64,000 nt of DNA, from assembly GCA_038044205.1 (NCBI GenBank), contig JBBTAN010000017.1:30027-94026 (forward strand), written 5' to 3'. The notes under the pieces are model-generated. The model did not search any database. It was not told where the DNA came from and saw nothing but the letters and a program-made list of their open reading frames with translations. Of the stretch, positions 1,838 to 53,131 are shown in pieces. The first letter of the stretch is position 1. Every line of letters begins with the position of its first letter. A program made the position numbers and the translations under genes. The DNA is from Nanobdellota archaeon. GTDB taxonomy: Archaea > Nanobdellota > Nanobdellia > Pacearchaeales > GW2011-AR1.

Positions 1838-1880
1838 TCAATTGATCCTTTCGTCTCAAAACCTTTATTATTCTATGGTA
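1838..1880 (+). promoter_or_regulatory. degenerate motif-2 element
   Basis: TCAATTGATCCTT followed by ttattc and tatggtAGATGAGAAA; tandem with the full copy at 1919. Confidence 0.4.
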
Positions 1881-1918
1881 GATGAGAAAGAACAAAGAAA
1901 AATAAAATAATTTATATT

Positions 1919-1961
1919 CCAACTGATCCGACATGCTTCTTGTTCCTTCTCATTCTATTAT
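1919..1961 (+). promoter_or_regulatory. motif-2 element (CCAACTGATCCGA-N24-TATTAT)
   Basis: 13-mer shared with 7 other sites; a -10-like hexamer lies 12 nt before ATG 1974. Confidence 0.55.
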
Positions 1962-1973
1962 AGAACAAAGGAA

Positions 1974-2300
1974 ATGACTATGAAACTAGGAGAAATTTTT
2001 ATAATAGTAGCTATTGCAATGATACTTGGTTCTTTATTTTTCTCTTATATAAAAGAATTTAGAGATTCTGTTAAACCTCAATTAGGAAAACAAGTAATTG
2101 AATTGCCAAAAGAAAAACAGATAATATATGAAGAACAAGTAGATAATACAAATATTGGTTTCTTGATAAATATGGCAATAATCTGGTTGGTATTGGATAT
2201 GAAAAGAATTGGATTTATAAAAATATTATTGGAAAAACTTCTTTCGTTGCTTCTCATTTTACTTTGGAACAAAGAAAGAAAACATCATGAAACCAATTGA
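1974..2300 (+). CDS. membrane protein, family T
   Basis: N-terminal TM helix plus IKEFRDSVKPQ, shared with the 2287 gene. Confidence 0.55.
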   Translation: MTMKLGEIFIIVAIAMILGSLFFSYIKEFRDSVKPQLGKQVIELPKEKQIIYEEQVDNTNIGFLINMAIIWLVLDMKRIGFIKILLEKLLSLLLILLWNKERKHHETN

Positions 2301-2601
2301 ACTTGCAATTACTGTTTTTATTATTTCTATTGTTGGCTATATTTTTATTTCAGGTATAAAAGAATTCAGAGACTCTTTAAAACCTCAACCTGTTATAGAA
2401 AAACAAATCCAATCAAAGGAAAATATTCAAGTAAATTATAAAAAAGAAATAGCTAAATTAAATATTATTATTTTAGATATGGAACAAAAAATCAGAGACC
2501 TAGAAAAACTACACGTTGAACAAGAATCTTTTATTTCAGATACAAGGAATATAGAAAAAAGACTGCGACAACTAGAAAAAATTCATTGCGAAAAAGAATA
2601 G
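2287..2601 (+). CDS. membrane-anchored coiled-coil protein, family T
   Basis: TM helix plus IKEFRDSLKPQ; paralog of 1974. Confidence 0.6.
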   Translation: MKPIELAITVFIISIVGYIFISGIKEFRDSLKPQPVIEKQIQSKENIQVNYKKEIAKLNIIILDMEQKIRDLEKLHVEQESFISDTRNIEKRLRQLEKIHCEKE

Positions 2602-2605
2602 AATG

Positions 2606-2614
2606 TTGTATAAT
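2606..2614 (+). promoter_or_regulatory. TTGTATAAT -10-like element upstream of tRNA-Leu
   Basis: gTTGTATAATTAGTTt ends 12 nt before the tRNA 5' end; near-identical strings at 13456 and 47040. Confidence 0.5.
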
Positions 2615-2626
2615 TAGTTTAGAAAT

Positions 2627-2717
2627 GCGGTAGTAGCCGAGCGGCACAGGCAAGGCGCTTAAAACGCCTCGGAAGTAGCAATACTTCTTGTGAGTTCGAA
2701 TCTCACCTACCGCACCA
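2627..2717 (+). tRNA. trnL: tRNA-Leu (anticodon UAA), type II with long variable arm, CCA encoded
   Basis: acceptor gcggtag/ctaccgc; anticodon stem aggcg/cgcct with loop cTTAAaa; variable arm gaagta-gcaa-tacttc; T arm gtgag-ttcgaat-ctcac. Confidence 0.9.
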
Positions 2718-2746
2718 TTTCTTGTTTTTATTAAAGGAAATATAAA

Positions 2747-3532
2747 ATGATAACAAAAGATGAGTTAGTTCAATTATGGAATTCAGATATTACTGTAGTG
2801 AAAGTTAGAGAAAAGTTAGGGAGAATTTCAGAGAGACAATTGTATAAATACCTAAAATTGTACGACATCCCCAAAAGAAAAAGGGGAGGAGTTAGGAAAC
2901 AAACGACATATCCACAAACCATAGAATCTGCTTATGTTATGGGACTTGCTATTGGCGATGGAAATATTTCTAAATTAAAAAGAACTTTAAGACTTAGATT
3001 GTATTGCGATGAAAGATATAAAAAACTTATAGATAAATGGAAGTTATCTTGTGAAAATGTATTTCAAAGAAGAGTGTCTATATCAAATCATCATTGTGGC
3101 AAATGTAAAATCATATCTATACATACTAATGCTCTTTCTACTTTTCCTTGGGAACCAAATAAAGGACATAAATGGAAGCAAAAAGTAAAGATTCCAGATT
3201 GGATAATTGAAAACGAGGAATTTTTACATGCTTGTATGAGAGGTTTGTTTGAAACAGATGGTTGTTAGTATACACAGATAATAAAAACAAAAAATCATGA
3301 ATATTGTTATGAAAGAGCTAATTTTTGCAATTCGTCAAAAGAATTAATAAAACAGGTGATAAATTATCTTAAAAAATATGATATTCATTTTTGCGTATTC
3401 AAAAGAAAATATAGAAAAGGTATCATTAGAATTACTAGACAGAAATTTAAATCTACCTCAACAAATTATGCTATTGCTGTAAATGGATATGAAAAATTAA
3501 AAGAATTGACAGGATTTGTAAAGAAGGAATAA
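2747..3532 (+). pseudogene. LAGLIDADG homing endonuclease interrupted by an in-frame TAG at 3266-3268
   Basis: motifs MGLAIGDGN and RGLFETDGC; after the TAG the same frame stays open for 87 more codons (..FCNSSKELIKQVINYLKKYDIHF..), ending at TAA 3530. Confidence 0.75.
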
Positions 3533-3539
3533 AAAAAAT

Positions 3540-3670
3540 AACAGGTTGCAATGTAGATGACCGATATATTAGGTGGGAAATGGGCCGGAGCGTCATGTCC
3601 TCCGTTATTATCTCCTTAACCGAAAGCTGCCGCCCATGCTGAAGGCTTTCCTTTTACATTGCAACCTGTT
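3540..3670 (+). ncRNA. hairpin-closed GC-rich structured element U1
   Basis: perfect 16-bp closing stem aacaggttgcaatgta 3540-3555 / tacattgcaacctgtt 3655-3670 around a GC-rich core of about 100 nt. Confidence 0.45.
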
Positions 3671-3684
3671 TTTAATTAAAAAAT

Positions 3685-3799
3685 AGAAAATAAATAATGT
3701 CCTTTGTGTGGAGCCAAGCCAGCCGGTGATAAACACACCGTTAGTTTTCTCGGCGTAGTCTGTTGCTGGTAACTGTAGGACTACTATTATTTATTTTCT
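3685..3799 (+). ncRNA. hairpin-closed structured element U2
   Basis: closing arms agaaaataaataatgtcct / aggactactattatttattttct; GC-rich core with gtgtg/cacac and ccagc/gctgg pairings. Confidence 0.4.
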
Positions 3800-3814
3800 T
3801 TTTATTTTTTATTT

Positions 3815-3909
3815 AGAAAAATAATAATATTGCTTATTGCAAACTACTTGGCCAGGATAACATGTATTTTGTTCGGCCAATTCAGTAGAAATACTATTAT
3901 TATTTTTCT
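3815..3909 (+). ncRNA. hairpin-closed structured element U3
   Basis: 15-bp closing stem agaaaaataataata 3815-3829 / tattattatttttct 3895-3909; inner ttggcc/ggccaa stem. Confidence 0.4.
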
Positions 3910-3919
3910 TTTTTATTTT

Positions 3920-4009
3920 GGCAGATGATACCGCATTGTGGCGGATAAATTGGAGCAAAATGCGCGGGATGCAATCTATTTTCCAATTTTAGGATTGTTA
4001 TCATCTGCC
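3920..4009 (+). ncRNA. hairpin-closed structured element U4
   Basis: 11-bp closing stem ggcagatgata / tatcatctgcc followed by a T run; core contains attgtggc and attttccaatt strings. Confidence 0.4.
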
Positions 4010-4619: not shown

Positions 4620-4620
4620 A

Positions 4621-4884
4621 ATGAGAGAAGAAACTGTTGTTGAGACAAAAGCATGGAAACTTACTTGTAATGATTGTGGTAGGATAGAATTTTATTATGG
4701 AGATAAATTGCCTACTCATTTTTGGTTAGGATGGAATTTAGATGGAGGTGAACTTTGTTTTACCTGTGCATCAGTAGCAGGTAAACCAACTAACGCATCT
4801 CAGGAATTAGCTCAGAGAAAAGAGGATAAAAAGAATAAAAAAGGAGTAAGTAAACATGGAAAGACACACAAGACCACCTCTTAA
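4621..4884 (+). CDS. zinc-ribbon protein, family F
   Basis: CNDCGRIEFYYG..CFTCA parallels the N-terminus of 4242. Confidence 0.6.
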   Translation: MREETVVETKAWKLTCNDCGRIEFYYGDKLPTHFWLGWNLDGGELCFTCASVAGKPTNASQELAQRKEDKKNKKGVSKHGKTHKTTS

Positions 4885-5170
4885 AGCACCATTTTCAGTT
4901 GGAACTAAACTTAGATATATAGGAGATAGGAAAGTATCTTCTCTTATTGATGGAAAATATGTTCCTATTCTTTTTAATGGAATGGAAACTAAAATTATTT
5001 CCATTAGCCCTGGCTGGCAAGGAACGGGAATGATTATAGATGTAAATGATGAAACAGGTGAGGATATAATTGATTGCACTCATGATGATACTTCAGTATA
5101 TGAAACAGTAAATGGAGAGAAAAGATTGATTCACAATGAAAATAAAAAAGAATGGCAGGTAATAGAATGA
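4856..5170 (+). CDS. hypothetical protein, family E
   Basis: SD aaggagtaagtaaac; PPLKAPFSVGTKLRYIGDR..KKEWQVIE. Confidence 0.65.
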   Translation: MERHTRPPLKAPFSVGTKLRYIGDRKVSSLIDGKYVPILFNGMETKIISISPGWQGTGMIIDVNDETGEDIIDCTHDDTSVYETVNGEKRLIHNENKKEWQVIE

Positions 5171-5478
5171 AAAATACAAATCCACCATTAGAAGCTCCAT
5201 TTCCAGTTGGGACTAAATTAAAATATATTGGAGACAGGAGAAGTTGTGCTTTTATTAATGGAGAATATGTTCCTTGTATGTATAATGGCCTGGAAATAGA
5301 AATTATTTCCATTGACAAAGGAAGACATGGAACAGGACAAGTTCTTTTTGTAGATGAAGAAACAGGCGAAGAAGCATATTATAATACTGTAAATGGAAGC
5401 TCAGTATATGAAAATATAAAAGGTGAGAAGAGGTGTATTTTTCCTGAAAGTAAAAATGAATGGCAAGTAATAGAATAG
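5167..5478 (+). CDS. hypothetical protein, family E
   Basis: ATGA overlap with the 4856 stop; PPLEAPFPVGTKLKYIGDR..KNEWQVIE. Confidence 0.65.
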   Translation: MKNTNPPLEAPFPVGTKLKYIGDRRSCAFINGEYVPCMYNGLEIEIISIDKGRHGTGQVLFVDEETGEEAYYNTVNGSSVYENIKGEKRCIFPESKNEWQVIE

Positions 5479-7544: not shown

Positions 7545-7582
7545 CCAATTGATCCGACCATGAACCAAATTTATTTTATTTT
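7545..7582 (+). promoter_or_regulatory. motif-2 element (CCAATTGATCCGA-N19-TATTTT)
   Basis: preceded by tattttCC; 24 nt upstream of ATG 7606. Confidence 0.55.
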
Positions 7583-11001: not shown

Positions 11002-11036
11002 ATGCCCGGAACCATGACACCTGTTCTTTTTATTTT
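11002..11036 (+). promoter_or_regulatory. motif-1 element (ATGCCCGGA-N20-TATTTT)
   Basis: exact 9-mer, copy 1 of 12. Confidence 0.55.
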
Positions 11037-11809: not shown

Positions 11810-11844
11810 ATGCCCGGAACAAAATTACCTACCGTACCCATTCC
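11810..11844 (+). promoter_or_regulatory. motif-1 element (ATGCCCGGA-N20-CATTCC)
   Basis: exact 9-mer preceded by ttttccctg; followed by GC-rich hairpin actgtgg 11848-11854 / ccacagt 11883-11889. Confidence 0.5.
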
Positions 11845-11934: not shown

Positions 11935-11977
11935 CCAACTGATCCGACCATTGGATTTTTTATTTTTATTTTATTGT
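11935..11977 (+). promoter_or_regulatory. motif-2 element (CCAACTGATCCGA-N24-TATTGT)
   Basis: followed by AGATGAGAAA, as at 1870 and 28095. Confidence 0.55.
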
Positions 11978-12043: not shown

Positions 12044-12322
12044 ATGGACAACAAAAACAAAGAAATTACAGATGAAACAGAAATGTTACTAATAAGAGTA
12101 GAAAATGGAAAAGTACACGTAAGTCGTTCTTCTTTTTCCCATCCTATACATATACTTGTTGCTGATTATGATAATCCTAATGATGAAGATATTATCCAAG
12201 AATCAAAATCTTTCTATTTTCCATTAGAAGAAAAGTGTTTAGTTCAACATGTCTGGGAAAGTGTATTAATGCCTAAAGATACAGAAGAATTAAGAAAAAC
12301 TTTTTTCACTAAAAATAAATAA
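12044..12322 (+). CDS. hypothetical protein, family G
   Basis: GKVHVSRSSFSHPIHILVADYDNP..LMPKDTEELRKTFFTKN, shared with the C-terminal half of 12498. Confidence 0.65.
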   Translation: MDNKNKEITDETEMLLIRVENGKVHVSRSSFSHPIHILVADYDNPNDEDIIQESKSFYFPLEEKCLVQHVWESVLMPKDTEELRKTFFTKNK

Positions 12323-12390: not shown

Positions 12391-12433
12391 CCAACTGATC
12401 CGACAATGAATATTTTTATTTTATTTTTATTGT
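12391..12433 (+). promoter_or_regulatory. motif-2 element (CCAACTGATCCGA-N24-TATTGT)
   Basis: preceded by ccacccaacc. Confidence 0.55.
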
Positions 12434-12497: not shown

Positions 12498-13193
12498 ATG
12501 AAAATCGAATATTATGATTGCATAAATACTATACTCAATTACATAAAAGAAAATATTAAATCTATTTATTATGAGAAACCTATCCGATGCCAATTATTAA
12601 ATCAGAATGATGGAATTTCTAAAGGATTCTCTTTAGATTTTGAAAATGAAAATGTGATTATTTATTGTTATGAAAACCTCTATCCTGAAAAAAGTTTTAA
12701 AATTATTTATGAAATAAAACATGAAATGCCAGAAACAAATATTATTTATGGATTTTCTATGGAATCTTGTAAAAATACAGCTAATGCTATTGTTAATTAT
12801 ATAGAAAATTTCCTAGGTCTTGAAAAATCACAAATACATCCTATTCATCCAGACTATGAAATGAATAATGGAATAGAAATGCTAGTCATTGTGTTTAGTA
12901 ATGGGAAAGTCCAAGGTATAAATCGTTCCAATTTTTCCTATCCTATACATATTTTAGTTGCCGATTATGATAACCCTTATAACGAAAATCGGAAACTAGG
13001 ATCAAAAACATGTTGCATATCAGGATTACAATGTCTAGTTAGACCTGTTTGGGAAGGTTCATTAATGCCTAAAAATACAGAAAAATTAAGAAAAACTTTT
13101 TTCACTAAAAAAGAGCGTATCCTAACTGACGAAGAAAAAGAAGCAATTTATTATCATAACCATCCTGGTGAAATTAATAATGGACCATTTTAA
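12498..13193 (+). CDS. hypothetical protein, family G C-terminal domain
   Basis: 231 aa; GKVQGINRSNFSYPIHILVADYDNP..LMPKNTEKLRKTFFTKK. Confidence 0.7.
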   Translation: MKIEYYDCINTILNYIKENIKSIYYEKPIRCQLLNQNDGISKGFSLDFENENVIIYCYENLYPEKSFKIIYEIKHEMPETNIIYGFSMESCKNTANAIVNYIENFLGLEKSQIHPIHPDYEMNNGIEMLVIVFSNGKVQGINRSNFSYPIHILVADYDNPYNENRKLGSKTCCISGLQCLVRPVWEGSLMPKNTEKLRKTFFTKKERILTDEEKEAIYYHNHPGEINNGPF

Positions 13194-13477: not shown

Positions 13478-13556
13478 GGGCCTGTAGCTCAATTGGTTTT
13501 AGAGCATCGGACTCATAATCCGGGGGTTCCAGGATCATGCCCTGGCAGGCCCACCA
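13478..13556 (+). tRNA. trnM: tRNA-Met-type (anticodon CAU; Ile2 not excluded) with atypical T-loop, CCA encoded
   Basis: perfect acceptor gggcctg/caggccc; D stem gctc/gagc; anticodon loop cTCATaa; T stem ccagg/cctgg but T loop atcatgc lacks TTC. Confidence 0.8.
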
Positions 13557-13662
13557 TTTTCAATCTTTCCCAAAAAAGAAAAAATAAATAAAGGAATCCG
13601 TTTCAATAACATACAATTTATATTAGTCCACAATATTGTGGTTTGATATATGGAGGTCCAAT

Positions 13663-14325
13663 ATGAAAGAACAGGAAAAGATTAAAGCTATTGAGTTGAG
13701 AAAACAAGGGTTATCAGTCAATAAAATAGCAAAAGAAGTTGGTGCTTCAAAAGGAACTGTCAGTGTATGGGTTAGAGATATTCAATTAACAAAAGAACAA
13801 AAGATTCAATTAGCTAAAAATAGAAATCCAGGTTATTCAGGATTTAGCACAAAAGAAATATTAGCAGAAGAAAAAGAAAAAAGAATAGAATCACAAAACA
13901 AAGGGAGAGAAATAGTAAAAAGTTGTGAAGAAGGATATAGGTATGGATGTATGTTATACTGGACAAAAGGTGAAAAAAATAAAAATTGTGTTGTATTCTC
14001 GAATACAGATGTAAATATAATGATTCTATTTATTAATTTTTTGAGAAAATATTTTAACTGCAATAATAAAGATTTTTCTATTTCTGTAACCGCTAATGTC
14101 AATAGTGAATATTCTTCTTCAGATATAGAAAATTTTTGGATCCAGAACCTTGGTATTGAAAAAGAATGTTTAAAAAAATCAACATTCAAGAAAAACGATA
14201 AAGAAAATAATGAATATCCTTATGGGAAATGTCGTATAGCTCTAAATAATACAGATGTAATTCAGCAGATTTATGGCTCTATTCAAGAAATTGGTGGATT
14301 CGTCCAGGAAGAATGGCTATATTGA
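13663..14325 (+). CDS. HTH plus LAGLIDADG-like homing-endonuclease-like protein, family H
   Basis: IELRKQGLSVNKIAKEVGASKGTVSVWV (HTH); CMLYWTKGEKNKN..FINFLRKYF..FW resembles a single-motif LAGLIDADG-type domain from memory. Confidence 0.5.
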   Translation: MKEQEKIKAIELRKQGLSVNKIAKEVGASKGTVSVWVRDIQLTKEQKIQLAKNRNPGYSGFSTKEILAEEKEKRIESQNKGREIVKSCEEGYRYGCMLYWTKGEKNKNCVVFSNTDVNIMILFINFLRKYFNCNNKDFSISVTANVNSEYSSSDIENFWIQNLGIEKECLKKSTFKKNDKENNEYPYGKCRIALNNTDVIQQIYGSIQEIGGFVQEEWLY

Positions 14326-14432
14326 TTTTTTATTTTTTAGAAAAAGAAAAATAAATAAAGGAATTTTTATACCCTATGCCGAATCTAAATATATCCAACA
14401 TCATTTCGATGTTTGGTATAAGGAGATTCGGT

Positions 14433-15143
14433 ATGAAAAAAGAAGAAAAAGCCAAAGCTATTGAATTACGCAAGCAAGGGTTTTCATTGCGTACAATATC
14501 AAAACAACTAGGCGCATGTAGAAGTAGTGTAAGTTATTGGGTTAGAAATGTTTTATTAACAGATGCTCAAAAAACACAATTGATAGCTAATAAAAATAAT
14601 AGTGGATATTTAGGATTTGGAGCAAGAGTTGTAGCTGCTAAAGCTAAAGAAAAAAGGATGGAGTATCAAAATATAGGAATAGAAAAAGCTAGTAATTGCG
14701 ATATAGAATATTCAATGGGATGTATGTTGTATTGGGCCGAAGGTAGTAAAAATAAAAATGCTGTAATATTTACAAACACAGATGTTGATATGATGGTATT
14801 TTTTGTGAATTTTATGAGAAAATATTTCAATTGTAATAATGAAGACTTTGCAGTATCTATAAATACTTATTTAGATAATGGCTACACTGAAATTGAAGTG
14901 GAAAATTTTTGGATGGAAAAATTTAAACTTGACAGAACTTGTTTAAGAAAATCAATTTTTAGAAAAGGTGATGGGACAGGTAAATATCCTTATGGAACAT
15001 GTAGAATAAGTATAGGTAGCACAAAAATAGTTCAACAGATATATGGTTCTATACAAAAATTAATTGGTTTTAAAAGGGAATTGTGGTTAAATGGTAGCAG
15101 GGGTTGGAAAGGCCAAAATAAAAATTTAGAATCAATCAAATAA
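14433..15143 (+). CDS. HTH plus LAGLIDADG-like homing-endonuclease-like protein, family H
   Basis: paralog of 13663: IELRKQGFSLRTISKQLGACRSSVSYWV, CMLYWAEGSKNKN, FVNFMRKYF. Confidence 0.5.
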   Translation: MKKEEKAKAIELRKQGFSLRTISKQLGACRSSVSYWVRNVLLTDAQKTQLIANKNNSGYLGFGARVVAAKAKEKRMEYQNIGIEKASNCDIEYSMGCMLYWAEGSKNKNAVIFTNTDVDMMVFFVNFMRKYFNCNNEDFAVSINTYLDNGYTEIEVENFWMEKFKLDRTCLRKSIFRKGDGTGKYPYGTCRISIGSTKIVQQIYGSIQKLIGFKRELWLNGSRGWKGQNKNLESIK

Positions 15144-15151: not shown

Positions 15152-15227
15152 GGGCTAGTGGGGATGGTCTCCTCGCAACGTCTTATAAGCGTTGTTTTCT
15201 CAGTTCAATTCTGAGCTAGGCTTACCA
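15152..15227 (+). tRNA. trnI: non-canonical tRNA-like gene, anticodon UAU (Ile, AUA)
   Basis: T arm ctcag-ttcaatt-ctgag; anticodon stem aacgt/gcgtt with loop cTTATaa; acceptor gggctag/ctaggct has a G-G mismatch; crowded D arm; 3' tail t-acca. Confidence 0.55.
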
Positions 15228-15614: not shown

Positions 15615-15669
15615 CTTTAGAAAATAAAAATAAATAATTATTTTTTATTGTTGTGGACCAAAAATAAAA

Positions 15670-15687
15670 AGATAGAATCAACTATCT
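15670..15687 (+). repeat. hairpin agatag-aatcaa-ctatct, copy 2
   Basis: followed by tgtttatattttt; possible weak terminator. Confidence 0.6.
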
Positions 15688-15913
15688 TGTTTATATTTTT
15701 TATAAGTAAAATAAAAAAAGAAAGGAAGTAATATGTTGATTGAAATCAACTGTAAATTTTGAGAAAGTTTATAACAATTAAATAAAAAACAATATATATT
15801 ATATTAAACTGTAAGTGTTTTATAAAAAATAAAAAAATAATATATAAATATACACTCTATAAAAAATAATATATTTATATTTTACGCCCTAAATAAAAAA
15901 AGGAAAAATAAAA

Positions 15914-16868: not shown

Positions 16869-16946
16869 ATGATTACTATGTTATTAGGATTTATTATAGG
16901 TATATGTTTATGTTATTGGATTTTTGGAGATGAAGATGAAAAGTAA
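16869..16946 (+). CDS. very small membrane peptide
   Basis: 25 aa, MITMLLGFIIGICLCYWIFG, SD aaaaggaaaaataaaa. Confidence 0.4.
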   Translation: MITMLLGFIIGICLCYWIFGDEDEK

Positions 16947-16950
16947 TAAA

Positions 16951-16991
16951 AATAAACATATATAATTTATTATTTTATTTTTTAAAAGGAG
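16951..16991 (+). repeat. 41-nt exact repeat, copy 1 (aataaacatatataatttattattttattttttaaaaggag)
   Basis: identical at 17886-17926; contains TATAAT and supplies the SD of the next gene. Confidence 0.8.
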
Positions 16992-17726: not shown

Positions 17727-17900
17727 ATGAGAGAAGAAGATCGGAATCGACTAATAGAGATAAAAAAGAAGATAAAATTGGGTATTATTTCCAGTCCAAT
17801 TGAGAAGAAATTTTTAGAGCAAATGTGGAACAATTACAGAGTAGAATATTGCGAGATAGAGCAATTGGTAGGGGATTATGGAATAAATAAACATATATAA
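17727..17900 (+). CDS. hypothetical small protein
   Basis: 57 aa, SD ggaggg; the 3' end runs into repeat copy 2. Confidence 0.5.
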   Translation: MREEDRNRLIEIKKKIKLGIISSPIEKKFLEQMWNNYRVEYCEIEQLVGDYGINKHI

Positions 17901-17926
17901 TTTATTATTTTATTTTTTAAAAGGAG
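17886..17926 (+). repeat. 41-nt exact repeat, copy 2
   Basis: identical to 16951-16991. Confidence 0.8.
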
Positions 17927-20403: not shown

Positions 20404-20438
20404 ATGCCCGGAAGATGGTCGGTTGGGGGTCATATTAT
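20404..20438 (+). promoter_or_regulatory. motif-1 element (ATGCCCGGA-N20-TATTAT)
   Basis: exact 9-mer; motif 2 follows 20 nt later. Confidence 0.6.
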
Positions 20439-20458: not shown

Positions 20459-20496
20459 CCAATTGATCCGAATAATTCATCTGAATTATTTATTAT
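20459..20496 (+). promoter_or_regulatory. motif-2 element (CCAATTGATCCGA-N19-TATTAT)
   Basis: 24 nt upstream of ATG 20521. Confidence 0.55.
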
Positions 20497-22029: not shown

Positions 22030-22035
22030 TTAAAA

Positions 22036-22173
22036 TTAGATATATAGTTATTTGTACGAGCTTTGCCACTATATATCTAAACTGTCTATGCTCGACCGAG
22101 GCAGCATTAAAATGGAAAATAGATAACGTTTATTTATTTTTTGTTTCAATGGTGAGTAGGAGGGCGTTTTTTT
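22036..22173 (+). ncRNA. structured tandem repeat unit A
   Basis: 13-bp hairpin ttagatatatagt 22036-22048 / actatatatctaa 22068-22080 with a GC-rich loop; shares order and 3' block aatggtKAGgaRRRGSc with unit B. Confidence 0.45.
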
Positions 22174-22177
22174 AGAA

Positions 22178-22310
22178 TTAAATATATAGTATTGTTAATC
22201 CGCCTCTACTATATATTTAAACCGTCTAATCCGCCTTTTCTGAGACGGCATTAATAAAAATATATAACCCCTTATTTATTTTTATTTAATGGTTAGGAAA
22301 AGGCTTTATT
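22178..22310 (+). ncRNA. structured tandem repeat unit B
   Basis: hairpin ttaaatatatagt 22178-22190 / actatatatttaa 22208-22220 (G-C of unit A replaced by A-T); second hairpin ccgtct/agacgg; aatccgcc occurs in both loops. Confidence 0.45.
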
Positions 22311-22401
22311 ATTTTTATTTCTGTATATTGTTATCATATACAGTGGATTGAAACCAGAAACGCCACTAAACGCATTGTAGACCACGGAGAACCATTTTTC
22401 A

Positions 22402-22437
22402 ATGCCCGGAGGGATTAGACCTACCGCGTCCTATTAT
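22402..22437 (+). promoter_or_regulatory. motif-1 element (ATGCCCGGA-N21-TATTAT-N5-GTGGC)
   Basis: the only copy with a 21-nt spacer. Confidence 0.55.
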
Positions 22438-23766: not shown

Positions 23767-23801
23767 ATGCCAGGAAAGGCATAGAGACATGCAAGCATTC
23801 T
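23767..23801 (+). promoter_or_regulatory. degenerate motif-1 element (ATGCCAGGA-N20-CATTCT)
   Basis: one mismatch in the 9-mer. Confidence 0.35.
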
Positions 23802-28014: not shown

Positions 28015-28056
28015 TATATTTAATTTTCCAATTAATAGAAAAGGAGTAAAAAATGG

Positions 28057-28094
28057 ACAATTGATCCGATTGACTTTTTGAAATGTAGTATTGT
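28057..28094 (+). promoter_or_regulatory. motif-2 element (ACAATTGATCCGA-N19-TATTGT)
   Basis: sits directly on an orphan SD plus ATG (aaaaggagtaaaaaATGGACAATTGA); followed by AGAAGAGAAA. Confidence 0.5.
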
Positions 28095-28491: not shown

Positions 28492-28523
28492 ACAACCTCA
28501 TCATTGTGGTGAGGTTGTTTTAT
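28492..28523 (+). terminator. rho-independent terminator-like hairpin
   Basis: acaacctca / tgaggttgt followed by tttt; preceded by a second hairpin ggcaataata / tattattgcc at 28458-28490. Confidence 0.6.
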
Positions 28524-28648
28524 ATATTATTTTTATTTTTATTTTCCAGTCCACGTTTGCCGTAAATATAATATATTTTATTTTTATTATTTTTATTTTA
28601 TTATAATATATATTATTTATTTATATTTAAACAACAAAGGAGAAATAA

Positions 28649-29107
28649 ATGAAAGTGCGTTTGACGATTGATTTTGATTTAGGCGACAAATATAATGAAA
28701 AAGATTTTAATTTTTTGGAAGATAGATTACCTAAATATTATTTTTGTGATCCACATAGTAATCTTGCAGAAATGGCTATGGTTAATGGAATTCCTAAAAA
28801 AGATGAAACTATTGAGGATGTTGCTTGTTGTGAAAGTTCTCAAAAACATTACTTGGAAATGGTGCAAATAGCAGATACTGCTACCTGCAAATTTGAACAA
28901 ATAAAGGAGAAGAAAATGGACGCACAAGAAGCATTAAATATACTACGTAGAATAATCCATAAAGTTGATTATGATCATTCTGATATTTTATTCTATAACG
29001 CTAAAGAAGCTGTTGAAATTCTTACAAAAGAAATAAATAAACCAAAATATAAACCTGTTGATAATATTATTATTTCTACACCTACAACTAAATGGAAGAT
29101 TCCCTGA
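28649..29107 (+). CDS. hypothetical protein, family U N-terminus
   Basis: 152 aa; stop TGA 29105-29107 overlaps the ATG of motif 1. Confidence 0.65.
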   Translation: MKVRLTIDFDLGDKYNEKDFNFLEDRLPKYYFCDPHSNLAEMAMVNGIPKKDETIEDVACCESSQKHYLEMVQIADTATCKFEQIKEKKMDAQEALNILRRIIHKVDYDHSDILFYNAKEAVEILTKEINKPKYKPVDNIIISTPTTKWKIP

Positions 29108-29141
29108 TGCCCGGATAGGCATTTCCCTGCCTACTGATTAT
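29107..29141 (+). promoter_or_regulatory. motif-1 element (ATGCCCGGA-N20-GATTAT)
   Basis: exact 9-mer in a TGATG stop-start overlap. Confidence 0.55.
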
Positions 29142-29186
29142 AGATTGAAAATATAGAAAAGTAAGATAAAGAAAGGAGTAAGTAAC

Positions 29187-29885
29187 ATGTTGTCAGTTGA
29201 TAGTAAACAAGTAAATAATAAATGTATTATTTCTGCTGATTTTACAACTAATTGTCCAAGAAGGAGAAATGGAACTCCATGTAAATATTGTTATGTTGAA
29301 TCAAGTAGAAATAATAAATGGAATCCAAAACCAATTTCAGATTATTTGCCTTACACTGGTTGGGTAAAAAGAATAAGAAATCATACAAAATTTAAATTGA
29401 AAAAGGCTGGAGGATTGAGACTTTTTTCCTATGGCGATTACATGCCAGAACATGACAAAGATATTATTTTATTTTTGGACGACTGTTCCAAGTACAATGT
29501 AGACGTAAAGGTAATCACAAAACAGAGAGATTTTATCAAAAAATATCATAATCATCCAGCTATAAAAGTTATTCATATTAGTATAGATAATCTAAAAGAA
29601 AATGGATCTCATGTAAGTCATAAGTCTGCAAGGTTTTATAGAAATAAATATAAAAAAGTATTAGTTAGGTCTGTTGCTTGTAATTGGGATGATGTAAATA
29701 AATTTGGTAAAGCTAAATGGTGTGATATTATTACTTTGAATCATAAAATTATTCCAGGTAAAAGATTTCATTTATTTAGTAAAAATGAAAGGAAAGAAGC
29801 AAATAATATTTATCCAGGGAAGATATGCTGTATTACTAATCATTGTAATACGTGCAAAATTAAATGTAGAAAAAATAAGGAGTAA
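29187..29885 (+). CDS. Cys-rich protein, possible Fe-S enzyme
   Basis: 232 aa; CPRRRNGTPCKYC (Cx8Cx2C) near the N-terminus and CCITNHCNTCKIKC at the C-terminus; function not established. Confidence 0.65.
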   Translation: MLSVDSKQVNNKCIISADFTTNCPRRRNGTPCKYCYVESSRNNKWNPKPISDYLPYTGWVKRIRNHTKFKLKKAGGLRLFSYGDYMPEHDKDIILFLDDCSKYNVDVKVITKQRDFIKKYHNHPAIKVIHISIDNLKENGSHVSHKSARFYRNKYKKVLVRSVACNWDDVNKFGKAKWCDIITLNHKIIPGKRFHLFSKNERKEANNIYPGKICCITNHCNTCKIKCRKNKE

Positions 29886-31874: not shown

Positions 31875-31909
31875 ATGCCCGGAAAGAGCGTAGACGGTTC
31901 AAGTATTAT
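31875..31909 (+). promoter_or_regulatory. motif-1 element (ATGCCCGGA-N20-TATTAT-N5-GTGGC)
   Basis: about 70 percent identical over about 50 nt to the 55205 copy. Confidence 0.6.
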
Positions 31910-35816: not shown

Positions 35817-35838
35817 AACAAAAAAAGGAGTAAGTAAA

Positions 35839-36150
35839 ATGAATGAAAAGAATTATTTGGTTCAGTATGTTAGAGGGAGTCATGGTAGGAAAGTTGGTGT
35901 TGTGGTTGCTACTATTAAAGATGGACTTTTTTGGTTTGGATGGTCATTGTGTAATGAAAAGGATGAATTTAATAGGAAGATTGCTTATGATATTGCTTAT
36001 GGAAGAGCTAATAAGTATAGTAATCCTGTTGAAAAATATGATAGTGGACAATTTTCTAATCTTCCAAATTCGGTAAAAAAGACAGTTAAAAAGATTTACA
36101 GCAGGTGTGTTGCTTATTTTAAACAGCCTGTAAACACTGGAAAGGAGTAA
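35839..36150 (+). CDS. hypothetical protein
   Basis: ATG 35839 after SD aaaaggagtaagtaaa. Confidence 0.65.
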   Translation: MNEKNYLVQYVRGSHGRKVGVVVATIKDGLFWFGWSLCNEKDEFNRKIAYDIAYGRANKYSNPVEKYDSGQFSNLPNSVKKTVKKIYSRCVAYFKQPVNTGKE

Positions 36151-39181: not shown

Positions 39182-39219
39182 ACAACTGATCCGAAATAGA
39201 TTTTTCTATTTTCTATTGT
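39182..39219 (+). promoter_or_regulatory. motif-2 element (ACAACTGATCCGA-N19-TATTGT)
   Basis: here it precedes motif 1 (reverse of the usual order). Confidence 0.5.
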
Positions 39220-39242: not shown

Positions 39243-39277
39243 ATGCCCGGAAGGGGCAAGGAATGGACAATTATTCT
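39243..39277 (+). promoter_or_regulatory. motif-1 element (ATGCCCGGA-N20-TATTCT)
   Basis: its reading frame runs 25 codons and ends in an ATGA overlap with ATG 39317. Confidence 0.55.
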
Positions 39278-41895: not shown

Positions 41896-42363
41896 ATGAG
41901 TAAGTTTGGAAGTGGTTATAGTTGGAATGGTTCTGATGAATTCCCTGTACTTTGTTATTTTGATGATAATAAAAATTTATTTATTGATGACGTTCCTGCC
42001 ACTGTAAATACTCCTGATATTGTTAGAACTATAATAAAATATTTGCTTATTGATAAAAAAAATATTGAAATATGTTTTTATTTTAATTATAAGGGTTATT
42101 ATGATCCAGGAAAACTAAACGATCTACCTGAAAATTGTTACCCACCTGAAAGTGAAGATGAGAGAGAAATAACGGATTTTTATGTATGGGATATTGATAG
42201 TAAAGATATTATTTATATCTCTGATGAAGATAAAAAGACTATTATGGATAATTGGAAATATATTGACAAAAAGCTTTATGAGATTGAAATTGACACTAAA
42301 TCTGATGATTCTTATGATCCGCCTGATGTCGATGATTATGAACCTTCCTATAGAAGCTTCTAA
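41896..42363 (+). CDS. hypothetical protein, family B
   Basis: SGYSWNGSDEFPVLCYFDD..DSYDPPDVDDYEPSYR. Confidence 0.65.
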   Translation: MSKFGSGYSWNGSDEFPVLCYFDDNKNLFIDDVPATVNTPDIVRTIIKYLLIDKKNIEICFYFNYKGYYDPGKLNDLPENCYPPESEDEREITDFYVWDIDSKDIIYISDEDKKTIMDNWKYIDKKLYEIEIDTKSDDSYDPPDVDDYEPSYRSF

Positions 42364-42375
42364 AGGAAATAAAAA

Positions 42376-45582: not shown

Positions 45583-45772
45583 GGTTAGCTGGGAAATTGA
45601 CATTGATGCTAATAGTCCTTATGAGGCTGCTAAAGAGGCTTTTAAAATTATGCAAGAGCCAGGATCTTCTGCTACATTTTTTGAAGTTACTTCACCTAAA
45701 GGAAATAAATATCAATATGATCTTGAGTATGGTGATGATGATAATAAAGATAATTATGATGAGAATGGTTGA
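45569..45772 (+). CDS. hypothetical acidic protein
   Basis: ATG 45569 after SD aaggagaaagaaa; stop TGA 45770-45772 overlaps the motif-1 ATG. Confidence 0.6.
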   Translation: MKEFRVSWEIDIDANSPYEAAKEAFKIMQEPGSSATFFEVTSPKGNKYQYDLEYGDDDNKDNYDENG

Positions 45773-45806
45773 TGCCCGGAATGATAGAAAACTGGCGTTC
45801 TATTAT
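45772..45806 (+). promoter_or_regulatory. motif-1 element (ATGCCCGGA-N20-TATTAT)
   Basis: followed by hairpin acgccaaa-tgg-tttggcgt (45815-45833) abutting the SD; its frame ends in an ATGA overlap with ATG 45849. Confidence 0.6.
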
Positions 45807-46109: not shown

Positions 46110-46583
46110 ATGCGTGGTTATAGTTGGAATGGTTCTGATGAATTTGCTGTTCTTTGTTATTTTGATGAAGATAATAAAAATTTACTTATTGATGAAAGTC
46201 CTGCCCCAGTTGATACTCCAGTTGAGATTCTAAATATCATTGCAAATCTTCTTACTGAAGCTCAAAATATTGAAATTTATTTTAAATTTAATTACAACGG
46301 TTATTATGATCCAGGAGAACTAAATGATCTACCTGAAAATTGTCACCCCCCTGAAAATGAAAATGAAGATAAAAGAGAGGTAACTGGTCTTTATGTTAAA
46401 GATGTAGATACAAAGGGACTTATTTATATTACCGATGAAGACAAAAAGACTCTTATGAGTAATTGGAAGTATATCGACGAAAAGCTTTATAGTGTTAAAA
46501 TTGATACTAAATCTGATGATTCTTATGATCCGCCTGATGTCGATACTTATGAACCTTCCTACAGAAAGTTTTATTGGAAATAA
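46110..46583 (+). CDS. hypothetical protein, family B
   Basis: RGYSWNGSDEFAVLCYFDE..DSYDPPDVDTYEPSYR; the 3' end is nearly identical at the nucleotide level to 41896. Confidence 0.65.
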   Translation: MRGYSWNGSDEFAVLCYFDEDNKNLLIDESPAPVDTPVEILNIIANLLTEAQNIEIYFKFNYNGYYDPGELNDLPENCHPPENENEDKREVTGLYVKDVDTKGLIYITDEDKKTLMSNWKYIDEKLYSVKIDTKSDDSYDPPDVDTYEPSYRKFYWK

Positions 46584-46585
46584 AA

Positions 46586-46814
46586 ATGAAAAGAATATAC
46601 TTATATTGAAAGTATTAAAACTTTTAACAGTGCAGAAGAAAATACAGAAAATTTTGTCTATAGTGAAGAATTGTTAGAATTGTTTGAGAGCATAATTAAA
46701 GAAGATGATCCAACTATTACTGATGAAAATTTTGTAAAATATGAACAATATTATGATTTTAAAGATGGGAAAAGGAGTATTCTTATATTTAATCATGATT
46801 TGACACTGTATTAA
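46586..46814 (+). pseudogene. duplication junction: 7-codon stub of the 42376 gene fused to a start-less family C copy
   Basis: ATGAAAAGAATATACTTATATTGA (MKRIYLY-stop) copies the start of 42376; from 46608 another frame encodes ..NFVYSEELLELFESIIKEDDPTITDENF.. with no ATG. Confidence 0.55.
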
Positions 46815-48149: not shown

Positions 48150-48188
48150 AAGGGGAGGGGCGCGCACCCCTCCCCTTTTTCTTTTATT
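48150..48188 (+). terminator. strong rho-independent terminator
   Basis: aaggggagggg-cgcgca-cccctcccctt followed by tttttctttt. Confidence 0.85.
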
Positions 48189-49099: not shown

Positions 49100-49134
49100 A
49101 TGCCCGGAGACGATTTGGACCCTGTTCTTATTAT
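49100..49134 (+). promoter_or_regulatory. motif-1 element (ATGCCCGGA-N20-TATTAT)
   Basis: the hexamer abuts the ggag of the next gene's SD. Confidence 0.55.
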
Positions 49135-50380: not shown

Positions 50381-50559
50381 TGAAAGATAGAAAGTGCCCA
50401 AGACAAGGATTTTTAACAACTCCTGAATTATGCGCTCAAAGAAGAGCAAGAGATTTTGATAGATGTAAAATTTGTAAACATAGAAAAGAATATGATGAGG
50501 AAGATGCTAAAATAAGTGCTGAAGTTAAGCCGCAAGAAGAAAACAAAGAAAAGGAGTAA
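50380..50559 (+). CDS. hypothetical small basic protein
   Basis: 59 aa, checked codon by codon. Confidence 0.5.
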   Translation: MKDRKCPRQGFLTTPELCAQRRARDFDRCKICKHRKEYDEEDAKISAEVKPQEENKEKE

Positions 50560-50564
50560 GTAAA

Positions 50565-50813
50565 ATGATTGTTTCTATTGTTCATCTTGATATTAAAAAT
50601 GGTTTTCCTGTAGTTGAAACAATTTATACATATGAAAATAAAAATTTAGAAGATTTAAAAGATAAATTTTTTGCAACAATTAAAAAGGATGACCCAAATA
50701 TAAGCCCTGAAAATTTAGAAAAATGCCTGAACTCTTTATATTACCAATATAAAAATAATAATAAATCTATTTCTTTACATTGGCATTTTGTTGAACAGGA
50801 AGTGCGAACGTAA
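50565..50813 (+). CDS. small protein, family C
   Basis: MIVSIVHLDIKNG..DDPNISPENLEKCL. Confidence 0.6.
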   Translation: MIVSIVHLDIKNGFPVVETIYTYENKNLEDLKDKFFATIKKDDPNISPENLEKCLNSLYYQYKNNNKSISLHWHFVEQEVRT

Positions 50814-51071: not shown

Positions 51072-51093
51072 ACAAAGAAAAGGAGTAACTAAC

Positions 51094-51546
51094 ATGGAAG
51101 TCAAGGAACAAGTTAGAAAGTTTGAATGGAATGAATTTGATATTATTCAGAATCAAGCCAAATTCTTGATGGAAGAAGAAAATATTGATGAAAAGAAAGC
51201 ATTTGATATTACTTGCGAAGACCCTGATCTTATTTCTTTTGAATGGGATTCTTTTCTTGATATGGTTACAGAAGAACTAAAAGAAATGAATCCAGGTGGT
51301 GATTGGGCTTGTAATGTTAAGGGGTTTGGTTGGCGTAAACTTGATGGGCATACTTATTTTAATGCCAAGGATGCTAAAGAATTTTTTAGTAAGATTCTTC
51401 CTGATTGCGAATGTAGATTTATTATGAATATTTTTCCTTGTGAAAAAACTATTTCTATTAACAATTTTCACCATGACTCGCCTTATGGTGAAGAATGGTA
51501 TTATTTGGAACCTGTCTTTTTTAGCGAGGAAAGTAAAAATGAATAA
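51094..51546 (+). CDS. hypothetical protein
   Basis: ATG 51094 after SD aaaggagtaactaac. Confidence 0.65.
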   Translation: MEVKEQVRKFEWNEFDIIQNQAKFLMEEENIDEKKAFDITCEDPDLISFEWDSFLDMVTEELKEMNPGGDWACNVKGFGWRKLDGHTYFNAKDAKEFFSKILPDCECRFIMNIFPCEKTISINNFHHDSPYGEEWYYLEPVFFSEESKNE

Positions 51547-51745
51547 AACAGACAATGCGCTCCATCTTGCTAATACAGGGCATTATACAATGGAAATGTT
51601 CTGGGAAAGAATGACAACTAAAGAATGGAAACTTATTCTTTTAGATGGTAATGATAAAATTTGCTGTCATGGAGTTCCTCGACAGTTAGTTGCAAAGAAG
51701 TTAGGTTGTGGCATTGTTGAAGTAAGGAAAGCACCTTTGGAATAA
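51539..51745 (+). CDS. hypothetical small protein
   Basis: ATG 51539 overlaps the previous gene's end. Confidence 0.5.
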   Translation: MNKTDNALHLANTGHYTMEMFWERMTTKEWKLILLDGNDKICCHGVPRQLVAKKLGCGIVEVRKAPLE

Positions 51746-51761
51746 AGAAAGGGAAATAAAT

Positions 51762-52970
51762 ATGTCTTCTTCTCTTATTGTTCCTGTCTGTCGCATTAAA
51801 AATAATAGAGAGCATCCTAATGCTTCCCTATTGGGTATTTGTGATGTCCTCGGATATCAAATGGTCGTCCCGCTCAAAGAGGCTCCTGATGGTCCTATTG
51901 CACGTTATTTTAAAAAGAATATGGTAGATGATAAGGGTAAGAAGATTCCAACTAATCAAGATGATCCTGAAGCTGAAGTTATTAATTTGGATTTTATGTA
52001 CCCAGAAGATAAATTAGTTGTATATTTCCCTTTCGACACTATTCTTTCTTCTGAATGGGCTTGTAAATTTGGTGTTCAATCTCTTCTCAAAGGTGCTAAT
52101 AATGATAGAGTAGGAAAGATTAAACTTAGAGGCGAACCAAGTTTTGGACTTGTTGTTGATATTCCTGAAGGTGTTGACTGGCAAGAAGGAACTAATGTTG
52201 CTGATTACTATGGCGCTATTAAATATGAACCGCCAGTTAGACAAATTTGTGGTGATGCTCATTATGCGGACCCTGATATTGATCCTTTCTTTGAAAAATT
52301 TACTGATGTTCAGAATGGTAGAATTTATACTGATATTTTTGAAGACGGTGAAGAAATCATTGCTACAGAAAAGTTGCATGGGTGCAACGGAAAAGTAGCG
52401 CTTATAAATAATAATTATGTTGCTGGTTCAATGAATCATAGAAGGAAGCGTCCAGTTAGGATGGAAGGTGAAAATGTTATTGAATGTTCTTTTGATGATA
52501 AGGAAATGAAAGAAAATATATATTGGTTTCCTTGGACTGTTTCTACTGTTAGGACAATGATGGAAAGTATAAAAAATATGGGGAATATTGTTCTTTATGG
52601 TGAGATTTATGGAGGGAGTATACAGAGTCTTACTTATGGAATTCCAAAAGGTAAAGGATTAGGATTCAGGGCTTTCGGACTAACAGTAAATGGTAAGTAT
52701 ATGGACTGGGACGATTTTGAATCAACTTGTAAAAAATATGGAGTTGATATTGTTCCTGTTATTTATAGGGGGCCATTTAGCATGGCTATTGCTAAACAAC
52801 ATGCTAATGGAAAAACTACTCTTACTAAAGATGGACAAATTAGAGAAGGAGTAGTTTGCTATCCAGTAAAAGAAAGAACAAATTCAAGGATTGGTAGATG
52901 TATACTGAAATATATTTCGGATGAATATTTACTTTCCAAACATCAAGATAATGACACAAAGGATATTTAA
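51762..52970 (+). CDS. ATP-dependent RNA ligase with N-terminal OB-like domain (Rnl5/DraRnl-like architecture)
   Basis: N-terminal VCRIKNNREHPNASLLGICDVLGYQMVV; motif I TEKLHGCNG (KxHG); later YGEIYGGSIQ, REGVVCYPV and ILKYIS in ligase motif order. Confidence 0.75.
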   Translation: MSSSLIVPVCRIKNNREHPNASLLGICDVLGYQMVVPLKEAPDGPIARYFKKNMVDDKGKKIPTNQDDPEAEVINLDFMYPEDKLVVYFPFDTILSSEWACKFGVQSLLKGANNDRVGKIKLRGEPSFGLVVDIPEGVDWQEGTNVADYYGAIKYEPPVRQICGDAHYADPDIDPFFEKFTDVQNGRIYTDIFEDGEEIIATEKLHGCNGKVALINNNYVAGSMNHRRKRPVRMEGENVIECSFDDKEMKENIYWFPWTVSTVRTMMESIKNMGNIVLYGEIYGGSIQSLTYGIPKGKGLGFRAFGLTVNGKYMDWDDFESTCKKYGVDIVPVIYRGPFSMAIAKQHANGKTTLTKDGQIREGVVCYPVKERTNSRIGRCILKYISDEYLLSKHQDNDTKDI

Positions 52971-52994
52971 ATAAAAAATAATAAATAAATCAAT

Positions 52995-53020
52995 AGGGGG
53001 CTTCTACAGCCCCTTATTTT
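52995..53020 (+). terminator. rho-independent terminator-like hairpin
   Basis: aggggc-ttctaca-gcccct followed by tatttt. Confidence 0.6.
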
Positions 53021-53042
53021 AATTGATAGTATATTTTCTCTC

Positions 53043-53077
53043 ATGCCCGGAGCAAATCGCTCTCAATGCCCTATTAT
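53043..53077 (+). promoter_or_regulatory. motif-1 element (ATGCCCGGA-N20-TATTAT)
   Basis: motif 2 follows 16 nt later. Confidence 0.6.
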
Positions 53078-53093
53078 TCGTTATAGGCCAATT

Positions 53094-53131
53094 CCAATTG
53101 ATCCGAATAAACATAATTTTCTTTTTATTAT
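53094..53131 (+). promoter_or_regulatory. motif-2 element (CCAATTGATCCGA-N19-TATTAT)
   Basis: the hexamer abuts the SD gaaaggag of ATG 53147. Confidence 0.5.

Follow-up and report, generated by a model that had tools for sequence, protein, structure and literature searches.

A probable phage-specific promoter class marked by a dispersed upstream block in a 500-kb groundwater contig

Short sequence words that recur in the gaps between the genes of a large genome, always facing the same way, raise the question of whether they are mobile repeats, the binding sites of regulators or parts of promoters. Two such words, here called motif 1 and motif 2, are dispersed over a 64,000-nt stretch (the window) of contig JBBTAN010000017.1 (GenBank assembly GCA_038044205.1), and it is the nature of motif 2 that we examine. 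Our answer, which we hold with reasonable though by no means complete confidence, is that motif 2 would be the upstream recognition block of a phage-specific promoter class of the bacterial two-block type, belonging to an uncultivated phage of about 500 kb. As a kind of feature such an element is ordinary textbook matter; the motif sequence itself is new.

The parent contig is ENA ERZ1292626 (Hain_H43_01um_R3_3_length_499814; 499,814 bp), from the 0.1-um filter fraction of Hainich groundwater, and exact protein matches place the window at about positions 154-218 kb of that record, in reverse orientation. The DNA surveyed amounts to ~104 kb of the contig: the window with 10 kb past each end (83.5 kb in all) and a 20.8-kb piece of the other arm (record 283,995-304,804; its positions are prefixed L221), which was found via a metagenome pattern match and proved to be part of the same genome. 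All other positions are window coordinates.

A scan of the window for CCAAYTGATCCGA with at most one mismatch finds copies at 1919, 7545, 11935, 12391, 20459, 28057, 39182 and 53094, all on the + strand. Allowing two mismatches raises the number of matches to 11, compared with 1.54 +/- 1.27 in shuffled sequence, and none of 100 shuffles reached 11; the extra matches at 3941 (- strand), 53591 and 55699 (the last in a paralogous gene repeat) lie within open reading frames (ORFs) and have no accompanying hexamer of the kind described below. The preliminary description of this stretch had listed eight full copies and a degenerate one at 1838, all intergenic and on the + strand, and every one of these positions is borne out. 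By a crude + strand gene call, all eight full copies are situated in the non-coding 11.8% of the window (p ~4e-8), 15-150 nt past the upstream stop codon and 21-110 nt ahead of the next Shine-Dalgarno (SD) sequence and start. The 40 kb of extra contig DNA contributed five further sites, for a total of 14 in ~104 kb (Table 1), and the orientation of the motif is that of the local genes in 14 of 14 sites, across a strand switch. Motif 2 is a discrete family, because in a scan of the 104 kb with a position weight matrix the 12 training sites scored 16-39 bits and no other position exceeded 14 bits. The SD sequence aside, motifs 1 and 2 are the sole over-represented GC-containing words.

Alignment of the copies reveals a composite unit, in which a T/C-rich lead-in is followed by the block CAAYTGATCCGA, a non-conserved 19-nt spacer, a yATTnT hexamer, four arbitrary nucleotides and TAG(A); written out in full, (A/T-rich)-TTYC-CAAYTGATCCGA-N19-yATTnT-N4-TAG(A). 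The hexamer is TATTAT or TATTGT at +19 in the copies at 20459, 28057, 39182 and 53094, and TATTTT at +19 in that at 7545. In intergenic DNA, TATTRT has a background rate of 0.006 per position, so its presence at +19 in four of eight copies has p ~1e-7. At 1919, 11935 and 12391 a TATTAT or TATTGT stands at +24, and the motif had accordingly been described as having a spacer of either 19 or 24 nt. The hexamers are indeed at these positions; the division into two spacing classes does not survive, because a yATTnT is present at +18/19 in all 13 non-degenerate sites (background 0.033 per site), the three 24-nt copies having weaker hexamers there (CATTCT, TATTTT and TATTTT, respectively). A separate 24-nt class is probably not real. 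One spacing of 18-19 nt is a simpler model and the better reading of the sequences, and a 5-bp change of spacer would be hard to reconcile with one rigid reader.

Beyond the hexamer, N4-TAG is found in 8 of the 13 sites (background 0.0016). The form N4-TAGA is seen at 1919, 11935 (in the +18/19 register), 39182, -8875, 1838 and L221:97, and N4-TAG only at 20459 and L221:10804. The string CATTCT-N4-TAGA arises independently at 1919 and L221:97, and the A in the second position and the T in the sixth position of the hexamer are invariant across the motif-2 sites. The continuation AGAnGAGAAA, which had been noticed in several copies, is seen in similar form at 1838, 11935, 12391 and 28057. Five copies continue the block as CCGAC(A/C), a partial TTGACA, and are referred to here as subclass 'a'.

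The downstream half of this unit is common to motif 1. The window holds 13 copies of motif 1 (ATGCCCGGA), invariably on the + strand, with the consensus unit TTTYCYnATGCCCGGA-N20-yATTnT; in 13 of 13 copies we find ATGCCCGGA-N20(21)-yATTnY, then N4 and a pyrimidine-purine step, with an invariant A in the second position of the hexamer and a T in the sixth save for the CATTCC at 11810. This common half, together with the intergenic placement, the co-orientation with genes and the fixed distance to a -10-like hexamer, supports the view that motif 2 behaves as a promoter component and not as a random repeat. Not every copy of motif 1 is purely intergenic: at 29105-29107, 45770-45772 and 55203-55205 the preceding gene ends on the TGA of the motif, which implies that these promoters would begin within that gene. 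The TGA of a motif 2 in the other arm is likewise the stop codon of the R2K gene there (L221:10808-10810).

The two motifs stand in tandem in five places, motif 1 first at 11810/11935, 20404/20459 and 53043/53094, and in the reverse order at 39182/39243 and 65535/65556; the four of these pairings that had been pointed out within the window were all correct on our scan. Their co-occurrence in one gap is only marginally above chance (p = 0.07). The 83.5 kb around the window hold 17 motif-1 and 12 motif-2 sites (two of the latter degenerate), and the 20.8 kb of the other arm none and two, respectively; such a regional difference in density fits two regulatory classes, for which the early and middle promoters of T4 provide a precedent (PMC2988021). 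As to the proposed alignment of the two cores, the shared TGAT, CC and GA are suggestive only; what the motifs do have in common is the T/C-rich lead-in, a CCGA or CGGA at the -35 position and an identical -10/start region. This common region, the tandem siting and the promoter-like placement make it plausible that the motifs are variants, differing in specificity, of a single recognition system, for instance two promoter classes that differ in timing, and among the readings of the pair we consider this the best.

Table 1. Positions of the motif-2 and motif-1 units and of the associated features
Feature	Position	Strand	Description
Motif 2, degenerate	1838..1874	+	TCAATTGATCCTT-N18-TATTCT, then ATGG-TAGA
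Motif 2	1919..1961	+	CCAACTGATCCGA-N19-CATTCT-ATTA-TAGA; +24 TATTAT at 1956-1961; gene start 1974 or 1980
Motif 2	7545..7582	+	CCAATTGATCCGA-N19-TATTTT; gene start 7606
Motif 2	11935..11977	+	CCAACTGATCCGA-N19-TATTTT-ATTG-TAGA; +24 TATTGT at 11972-11977; gene start 12044
Motif 2	12391..12433	+	CCAACTGATCCGA-N18-TATTTT; +24 TATTGT at 12428-12433; gene start 12498
Motif 2	20459..20496	+	CCAATTGATCCGA-N19-TATTAT-GGAG-TAGG; gene start 20521; tandem, 55 nt after motif 1 at 20404
Three-codon ORF	28053..28064	+	ATG GAC AAT TGA behind a full SD; stop is the TGA of the motif
Motif 2	28057..28094	+	ACAATTGATCCGA-N19-TATTGT-AGAA-GAGA; gene start 28163 behind its own SD
Motif 2	39182..39219	+	ACAACTGATCCGA-N19-TATTGT-AATA-TAGA; motif 1 next at 39243
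Motif 2	53094..53131	+	CCAATTGATCCGA-N19-TATTAT-GAAA-GGAG; hexamer abuts SD; gene start 53147; tandem, 51 nt after motif 1 at 53043
Motif 2, degenerate	65535	+	Abuts a motif 1
Motif 2	72068	+	Found in the extension scan
Motif 2	-8875	-	Inside a block of - strand genes
Motif 2 (two copies)	L221:97 and L221:10804	co-oriented with the genes there	Other arm
Motif 1	11002..11036	+	ATGCCCGGA-N20-TATTTT
Motif 1	11810..11844	+	ATGCCCGGA-N20-CATTCC; paired with 11935
Motif 1	20404..20438	+	ATGCCCGGA-N20-TATTAT; paired with 20459
Motif 1	22402..22437	+	N21-TATTAT-N5-GTGG
Motif 1, variant	23767..23801	+	ATGCCAGGA-N20-CATTCT
Motif 1	29107..29141	+	N20-GATTAT; TGA is the stop of an upstream 152-aa ORF
Motif 1	31875..31909	+	N20-TATTAT
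Motif 1	39243..39277	+	ATGCCCGGA-N20-TATTCT; paired with 39182
Motif 1	45772..45806	+	N20-TATTAT; TGA is the stop of the upstream ORF
Motif 1	49100..49134	+	N20-TATTAT-GGAG-TAGA
Motif 1	53043..53077	+	ATGCCCGGA-N20-TATTAT; paired with 53094; directly 3' of the terminator at 52997-53013
Motif 1	55205..55239	+	N20-TATTAT; TGA is the stop of the upstream ORF
Motif 1	61335..61369	+	N20-TATTAT-ATAG-TAGA; directly 3' of the terminator at 61287-61307
Hairpin with T run	28492-28518		GC-rich hairpin
Intrinsic terminator	48150..48177	+	Strong 11-bp GC hairpin, then TTTCTTTT
Intrinsic terminator, bacterial type	52997..53013	+	GC-rich hairpin, then TTATTTT; just before the 53043/53094 pair
Hairpin with T run	61287..61307	+	GC-rich hairpin, then CTATTTT; just before motif 1 at 61335

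How could such a unit work? The hexamer would be a -10 element of the sigma-70 family, its invariant A and T matching -11A and -7T; like the promoters of that family, the sites carry the A in position 2 and the T in position 6 and lie upstream of, and co-oriented with, genes (14 of 14). Transcription would start at a purine 6-7 nt past the hexamer, and the N4-TAG or N4-Y-R found there is compatible with, though it does not demand, a 5' end 6-8 nt after the -10. Were the hexamer to lie at -12/-7, the CCGA of motif 2 would occupy -35 to -32, the place of the TTGA part of a -35 hexamer at a 17-nt spacer, and the CGGA of motif 1 would occupy -36 to -33, at an 18-nt spacer, the remainder of motif 2 reaching upstream to about -43 or -47. 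The geometry of the -35 position fits and the sequence of the block does not fit the housekeeping consensus: CCGAnn of motif 2 and CGGAnn of motif 1 have only GA in common with TTGACA, or GACA in subclass 'a'. We envisage an ordinary -35/-10 geometry in which the -35 has been replaced, and extended upstream, by a phage-specific block, motif 1 being a sister class with the same -10/start region and another upstream block. These blocks would probably be read by phage-encoded factors, which could be either a phage sigma (through its region 4) or an activator or sigma-remodelling pair operating with the -10 recognition of the host sigma; with one factor per class, genes would be driven by either class or by both in tandem. 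Start site, polymerase, reader proteins and timing are predictions. A more ambitious version, which we consider improbable, would have motifs 1 and 2 read by two related phage factors of an undescribed kind, each on a 12-18 bp asymmetric block from -32 to ~-50 with the host sigma on the common -10, and would amount to a second independent invention of 'sigma appropriation' of the T4 kind, with two interchangeable adaptors and a two-tier programme in a phage of half a megabase.

Two other views of the unit were discarded. The TTGATC in the motif is not a standard -35: the hexamer is 22 nt away from it, a -10-like hexamer at 17 nt is present in the 7545 copy only, and the C-variants read CTGATC. 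Hairpins discerned by eye in the spacers at 20459 and 39182 are not common to the other copies.

The proposed layout has parallels in well-studied systems. In the Bacillus phage SPO1, the middle and late promoters, which depend on the sigmas gp28 and gp33/34, read AGGAGA-N17/18-TTTNTTT and CGTTAGA-N18-GATATT. As here, two phage-specific two-block classes, both of normal -35/-10 geometry, are found in an AT-rich phage whose host has strong SDs, and the -35 block sets the class; the SPO1 classes, however, differ in both blocks, whereas the -10 is common to both of ours, and the sequences are unrelated. At class II activator-dependent promoters the activator overlaps the -35 and is centred near -41.5. 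When positioned from the presumed start, the motif-2 block similarly extends over and upstream of the -35, from ~-32 to -47, next to a good -10; unlike those sites, it is asymmetric and has no dyad. The middle promoters of T4, at which AsiA and MotA appropriate sigma-70, contain a MotA box, (a/t)(a/t)(a/t)TGCTTtA; its centre lies at -30, and 12 +/- 1 bp separate it from the -10 (PMC2988021). There too the host -35 is replaced or overlain by an upstream block particular to the phage, and a host-like -10 is kept (TAtaaT in T4, tATTaT here), and several promoter classes are built on one -10 logic with the upstream block marking the class (PMC2988021). Motif 2 nonetheless falls outside the MotA-box family both in sequence and in spacing, since its block, CAAYTGATCCGA, ends 19 bp from the hexamer, and there is no AsiA or MotA homologue in the ~104 kb surveyed.

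Like its architecture, placement, orientation and spacing, the lineage specificity of motif 2 can be observed directly. The composite pattern matched 68 stretches in 185,579 species-representative genomes, all as single matches and in no assembly twice; IMG/VR yielded five single matches, which is the chance level; and among the metagenome matches listed (at least 115 stretches) the only notable one was the other part of the same contig. Motif 2 does not belong to the host-type promoters of any organism represented there, and because no other genome scanned exceeds a single chance-level match its specificity factor is probably encoded by the phage. In the literature searched, the motif strings retrieve unrelated primers only, and the work on huge phages and on phage G provides sigma/anti-sigma genes or generic promoter predictions only.

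The helix-turn-helix (HTH) proteins of the window had been suggested as readers of the motifs, a suggestion that finds no support. The two HTH_23 proteins (13636-14325 and 14376-15143) are tandem paralogues of 51% identity, located between tRNA-Met (13478-13556) and tRNA-Ile (15152-15223), and each consists of an N-terminal HTH_23 and a conserved alpha/beta domain with an invariant GCMLYW.EG. Tempting as it is to assign one paralogue to each motif, their family is large and widespread in cellular metagenomes that do not have the motif; most of its members are on metagenome contigs that are very short and have many member sequences, a pattern suggestive of a multi-copy or mobile gene. The confident AlphaFold model (predicted local distance difference test score 89.8) has no fold match in the PDB (best E = 0.44). 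A conserved AGCMLYWAEGSK had led to the idea that these paralogues are LAGLIDADG-like homing enzymes, which was abandoned on the lack of a PDB match and a different topology.

Several observations weigh against a phage-specific promoter class. A Pfam search of 150 window proteins (E <= 1e-3) and the precomputed Pfam hits for ~40 kb of flanking DNA, which together cover ~104 kb or ~20% of the contig, gave no sigma, AsiA, MotA or RNA polymerase gene. The yATTnT and N4-TAG patterns were defined after the data had been seen, which makes their p-values optimistic, and the hexamers at 7545 and 72068 are part of a T-rich run, in which a TATTTT is easily come by. A start 6-7 nt past the hexamer falls within the SD at 53094; the same caution had been voiced for 20459, where it does not apply, a start at that distance keeping GGAGG at the 5' end. 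No comparative information comes from the other assemblies of this phage, which are 99.95-100% identical to it, and its nearest protein-level relatives, at 29-52% GC, have neither motif. There was no match to 10 kb of the sequence in a megablast against 50,697 phage records, nor did scans of IMG/VR anchored on two proteins, the RNA ligase and the DUF932 protein, yield any. The nearest homologues of the RNA ligase (54-59% identity) come from contigs of 52% GC in which the motifs are absent, and a 507-kb contig with a 45% identical RNA ligase has 51% GC; relatives of the R2K ATP-grasp protein (50-53% identity) are on one 48% GC and one 29% GC contig, both also without the motifs, the abundant GATTGGTTT of the latter being a coding tandem repeat. 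Finally, NCBI names the proteins of the contig 'MAG: ... [Nanoarchaeota archaeon]' (MAG, metagenome-assembled genome), and if this label were correct the bacterial -35/-10 reading would be inapplicable.

The alternative that fares best makes motif 2 the operator of a phage repressor or regulator, lying beside a host-type promoter whose activity it would modulate without being needed by the holoenzyme. Such a function would suit the length of the conserved block (12-16 bp plus the T/C-rich lead-in), which exceeds that of the usual sigma region-4 site, and its position over the -35 and further upstream, typical of class II regulators. Moreover, the CCGACA or CCGACC of subclass 'a', a partial TTGACA at a 17-nt spacer, could be a weak host-type -35, and the window does encode HTH proteins. 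But 6 of the 12 full copies (CCGA-A/T) are without a TTGACA-like -35 beyond the GA of the motif and offer nothing else for upstream recognition. Nor is motif 2 palindromic, as most dimeric repressor sites are, and the spacing to the hexamer, constant within 1 nt in 13 of 13 sites, is tighter than operators usually need. Sigma-70 consensus promoters, for their part, are not enriched in the window (122 vs 126 expected, and 114 vs 119). An operator seems to us rather unlikely.

Far less probable is that the motif-2 core is itself the -10 of an alternative sigma. The -10 of sigma-28/sigma-D promoters is GCCGATAA, which TCCGAATAA resembles, and the copies at 20459, 53094, 39182 and 72068 read TGATCCGA-ATAA or TGATCCGA-AATA; the start would then lie inside the 'spacer' and yATTnT would be part of the transcript. 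The resemblance, however, holds only if 1 nt is inserted and is lost in subclass 'a' (CCGACCAT, CCGACAAT), and there is no TAAA-like -35 in the region 15 nt upstream. The fixed-distance hexamer and the TAG would also be left without an explanation, and motif 1 has both although its core is unlike GCCGATAA.

We give equally little credence to the contig being archaeal or that of an archaeal virus, with TATTAT as a TATA box, motif 2 as an upstream activator site, a start ~25 nt downstream and leaderless mRNAs at 1919, 20459 and 53094. The NCBI name speaks for it, as do weak matches of the HTH proteins to archaeal HTH families, a match to a TFIIB-type zinc ribbon and a hexamer-to-ATG distance of 21-30 nt at five sites. 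Yet the hexamer has no purine-rich B recognition element beside it, the preceding bases being T or C for the most part; the conserved block is not adjacent to it but at a distance of 19-20 nt; and the conserved N4-TAG/N4-Y-R stands 10-12 nt past the start of the hexamer, where archaeal promoters have nothing. Furthermore, the genes are those expected of a bacterial phage: ArdA, DUF932, ClpP, RNA ligase and ankyrin proteins in the window, the anti-Pycsar Apyc1, an R2K ATP-grasp protein, DNA methylases and HNH genes elsewhere on the contig, and an N_methyl pilin motif that we also count as bacterial-phage-like. A strong, stereotyped SD precedes nearly every gene, and terminators with a GC hairpin and a T run are present (Table 1). 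On account of this gene content, these SDs and these terminators, the Nanoarchaeota label is probably a binning error and the contig a ~500-kb, uncultivated phage of a bacterium, a correction that matters to users of that bin. Other traits in keeping with a phage are the tRNAs and strand-coherent arms of the 104 kb. The window, with 29% GC and a strongly positive GC skew, has practically every gene on the + strand (166 ORFs in a crude call, mostly small) and 4 tRNA genes.

The least probable alternative is a non-transcriptional one, in which motif 2 would serve as a target of recombination or homing, as a miniature mobile element, as an iteron or partition site or as a signal in the RNA. In its favour, the motif is dispersed and highly conserved, with a palindromic GATC and, in some copies, CAATTG, and the contig has HNH and other selfish genes and a TnpB gene. 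The anatomy of the unit already largely refutes it, since there are no inverted or direct terminal repeats, the flanks are unrelated, no consensus RNA structure or Rfam match is found, GATC is neither avoided nor special (176 observed vs ~214 expected), and strict gene co-orientation and a fixed-distance hexamer would have no explanation. A REP/MITE-like repeat (repetitive extragenic palindrome or miniature inverted-repeat transposable element) was discarded because nine aligned copies agree in the core and the hexamer only and a repeat finder shows no longer family; a structured cis-regulatory RNA, because RNAalifold predicts 0 pairs and Rfam at its gathering threshold finds only tRNAs; and GATC/Dam-linked control, because GATC is not depleted.

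Class-specific promoters time the genes of large phages, and of the uncultivated huge phages hardly anything is known beyond gene lists. If motifs 1 and 2 are indeed such promoters, two discrete families with about one site per 4-8 kb would outline the transcription units of a 500-kb phage whose gene annotations are mostly function-less, and their cognate factors, if found, would constitute orthogonal promoter/factor pairs.

Some local features of the motif-bearing regions deserve mention. An orphan SD and ATG had been described at 28054, as if motif 2 had overwritten a gene start there; they do exist, though the ATG starts at 28053 and opens an ORF of only three codons, and the gene served starts at 28163. 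In one of the local gene duplications, the 92-aa ORF behind the copy at 11935 partly duplicates the C-terminal portion of the 231-aa ORF behind that at 12391. About 5 kb upstream of the window there is a strand-switch region with diverging genes (L032 5051-5497; window coordinates ~-4850 to -4400), and a motif-1 copy at -4679 heads the + strand block there. Immediately before the start of the window, on the opposite strand, is a TnpB/IS605 OrfB gene (L032 8744-9826).

The ribosome-binding region is highly stereotyped: AAGGAGTAAGTAA(A/C)ATG, far longer than a plain SD, is present 21-25 times on the + strand and 0 times on the - strand (for example at 29170-29190, 35822-35842, 50548-50568 and 56553-56573). 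The tRNA-Ile at 15152-15223, with anticodon TAT, is an ARAGORN call below the Rfam gathering score for tRNA. An AT-rich repeat of ~45 nt (AATAAA.AAACATATATAATTTATTATTTTATTTTTTAAAAGGAG) occurs twice, at 16940-16990 and 17875-17925, each time directly ahead of a gene start, and could be a third, AT-rich promoter type. Long non-coding stretches of 200-450 nt interrupt the otherwise tightly packed region at 3533-3937, 15615-15913, 22030-22400 and 28435-28648; Rfam found nothing in them, and they could encode small RNAs. GC-richer non-coding segments are located at 3585-3740 and in the 125 nt between 11810 and 11935, the latter with CTGTGG...CCACAG. Local gene duplications with 70-83% DNA identity pair 12120-12315 with 12919-13111, 4868-5167 with 5176-5475, and 41952-42375 with 46157-46586.

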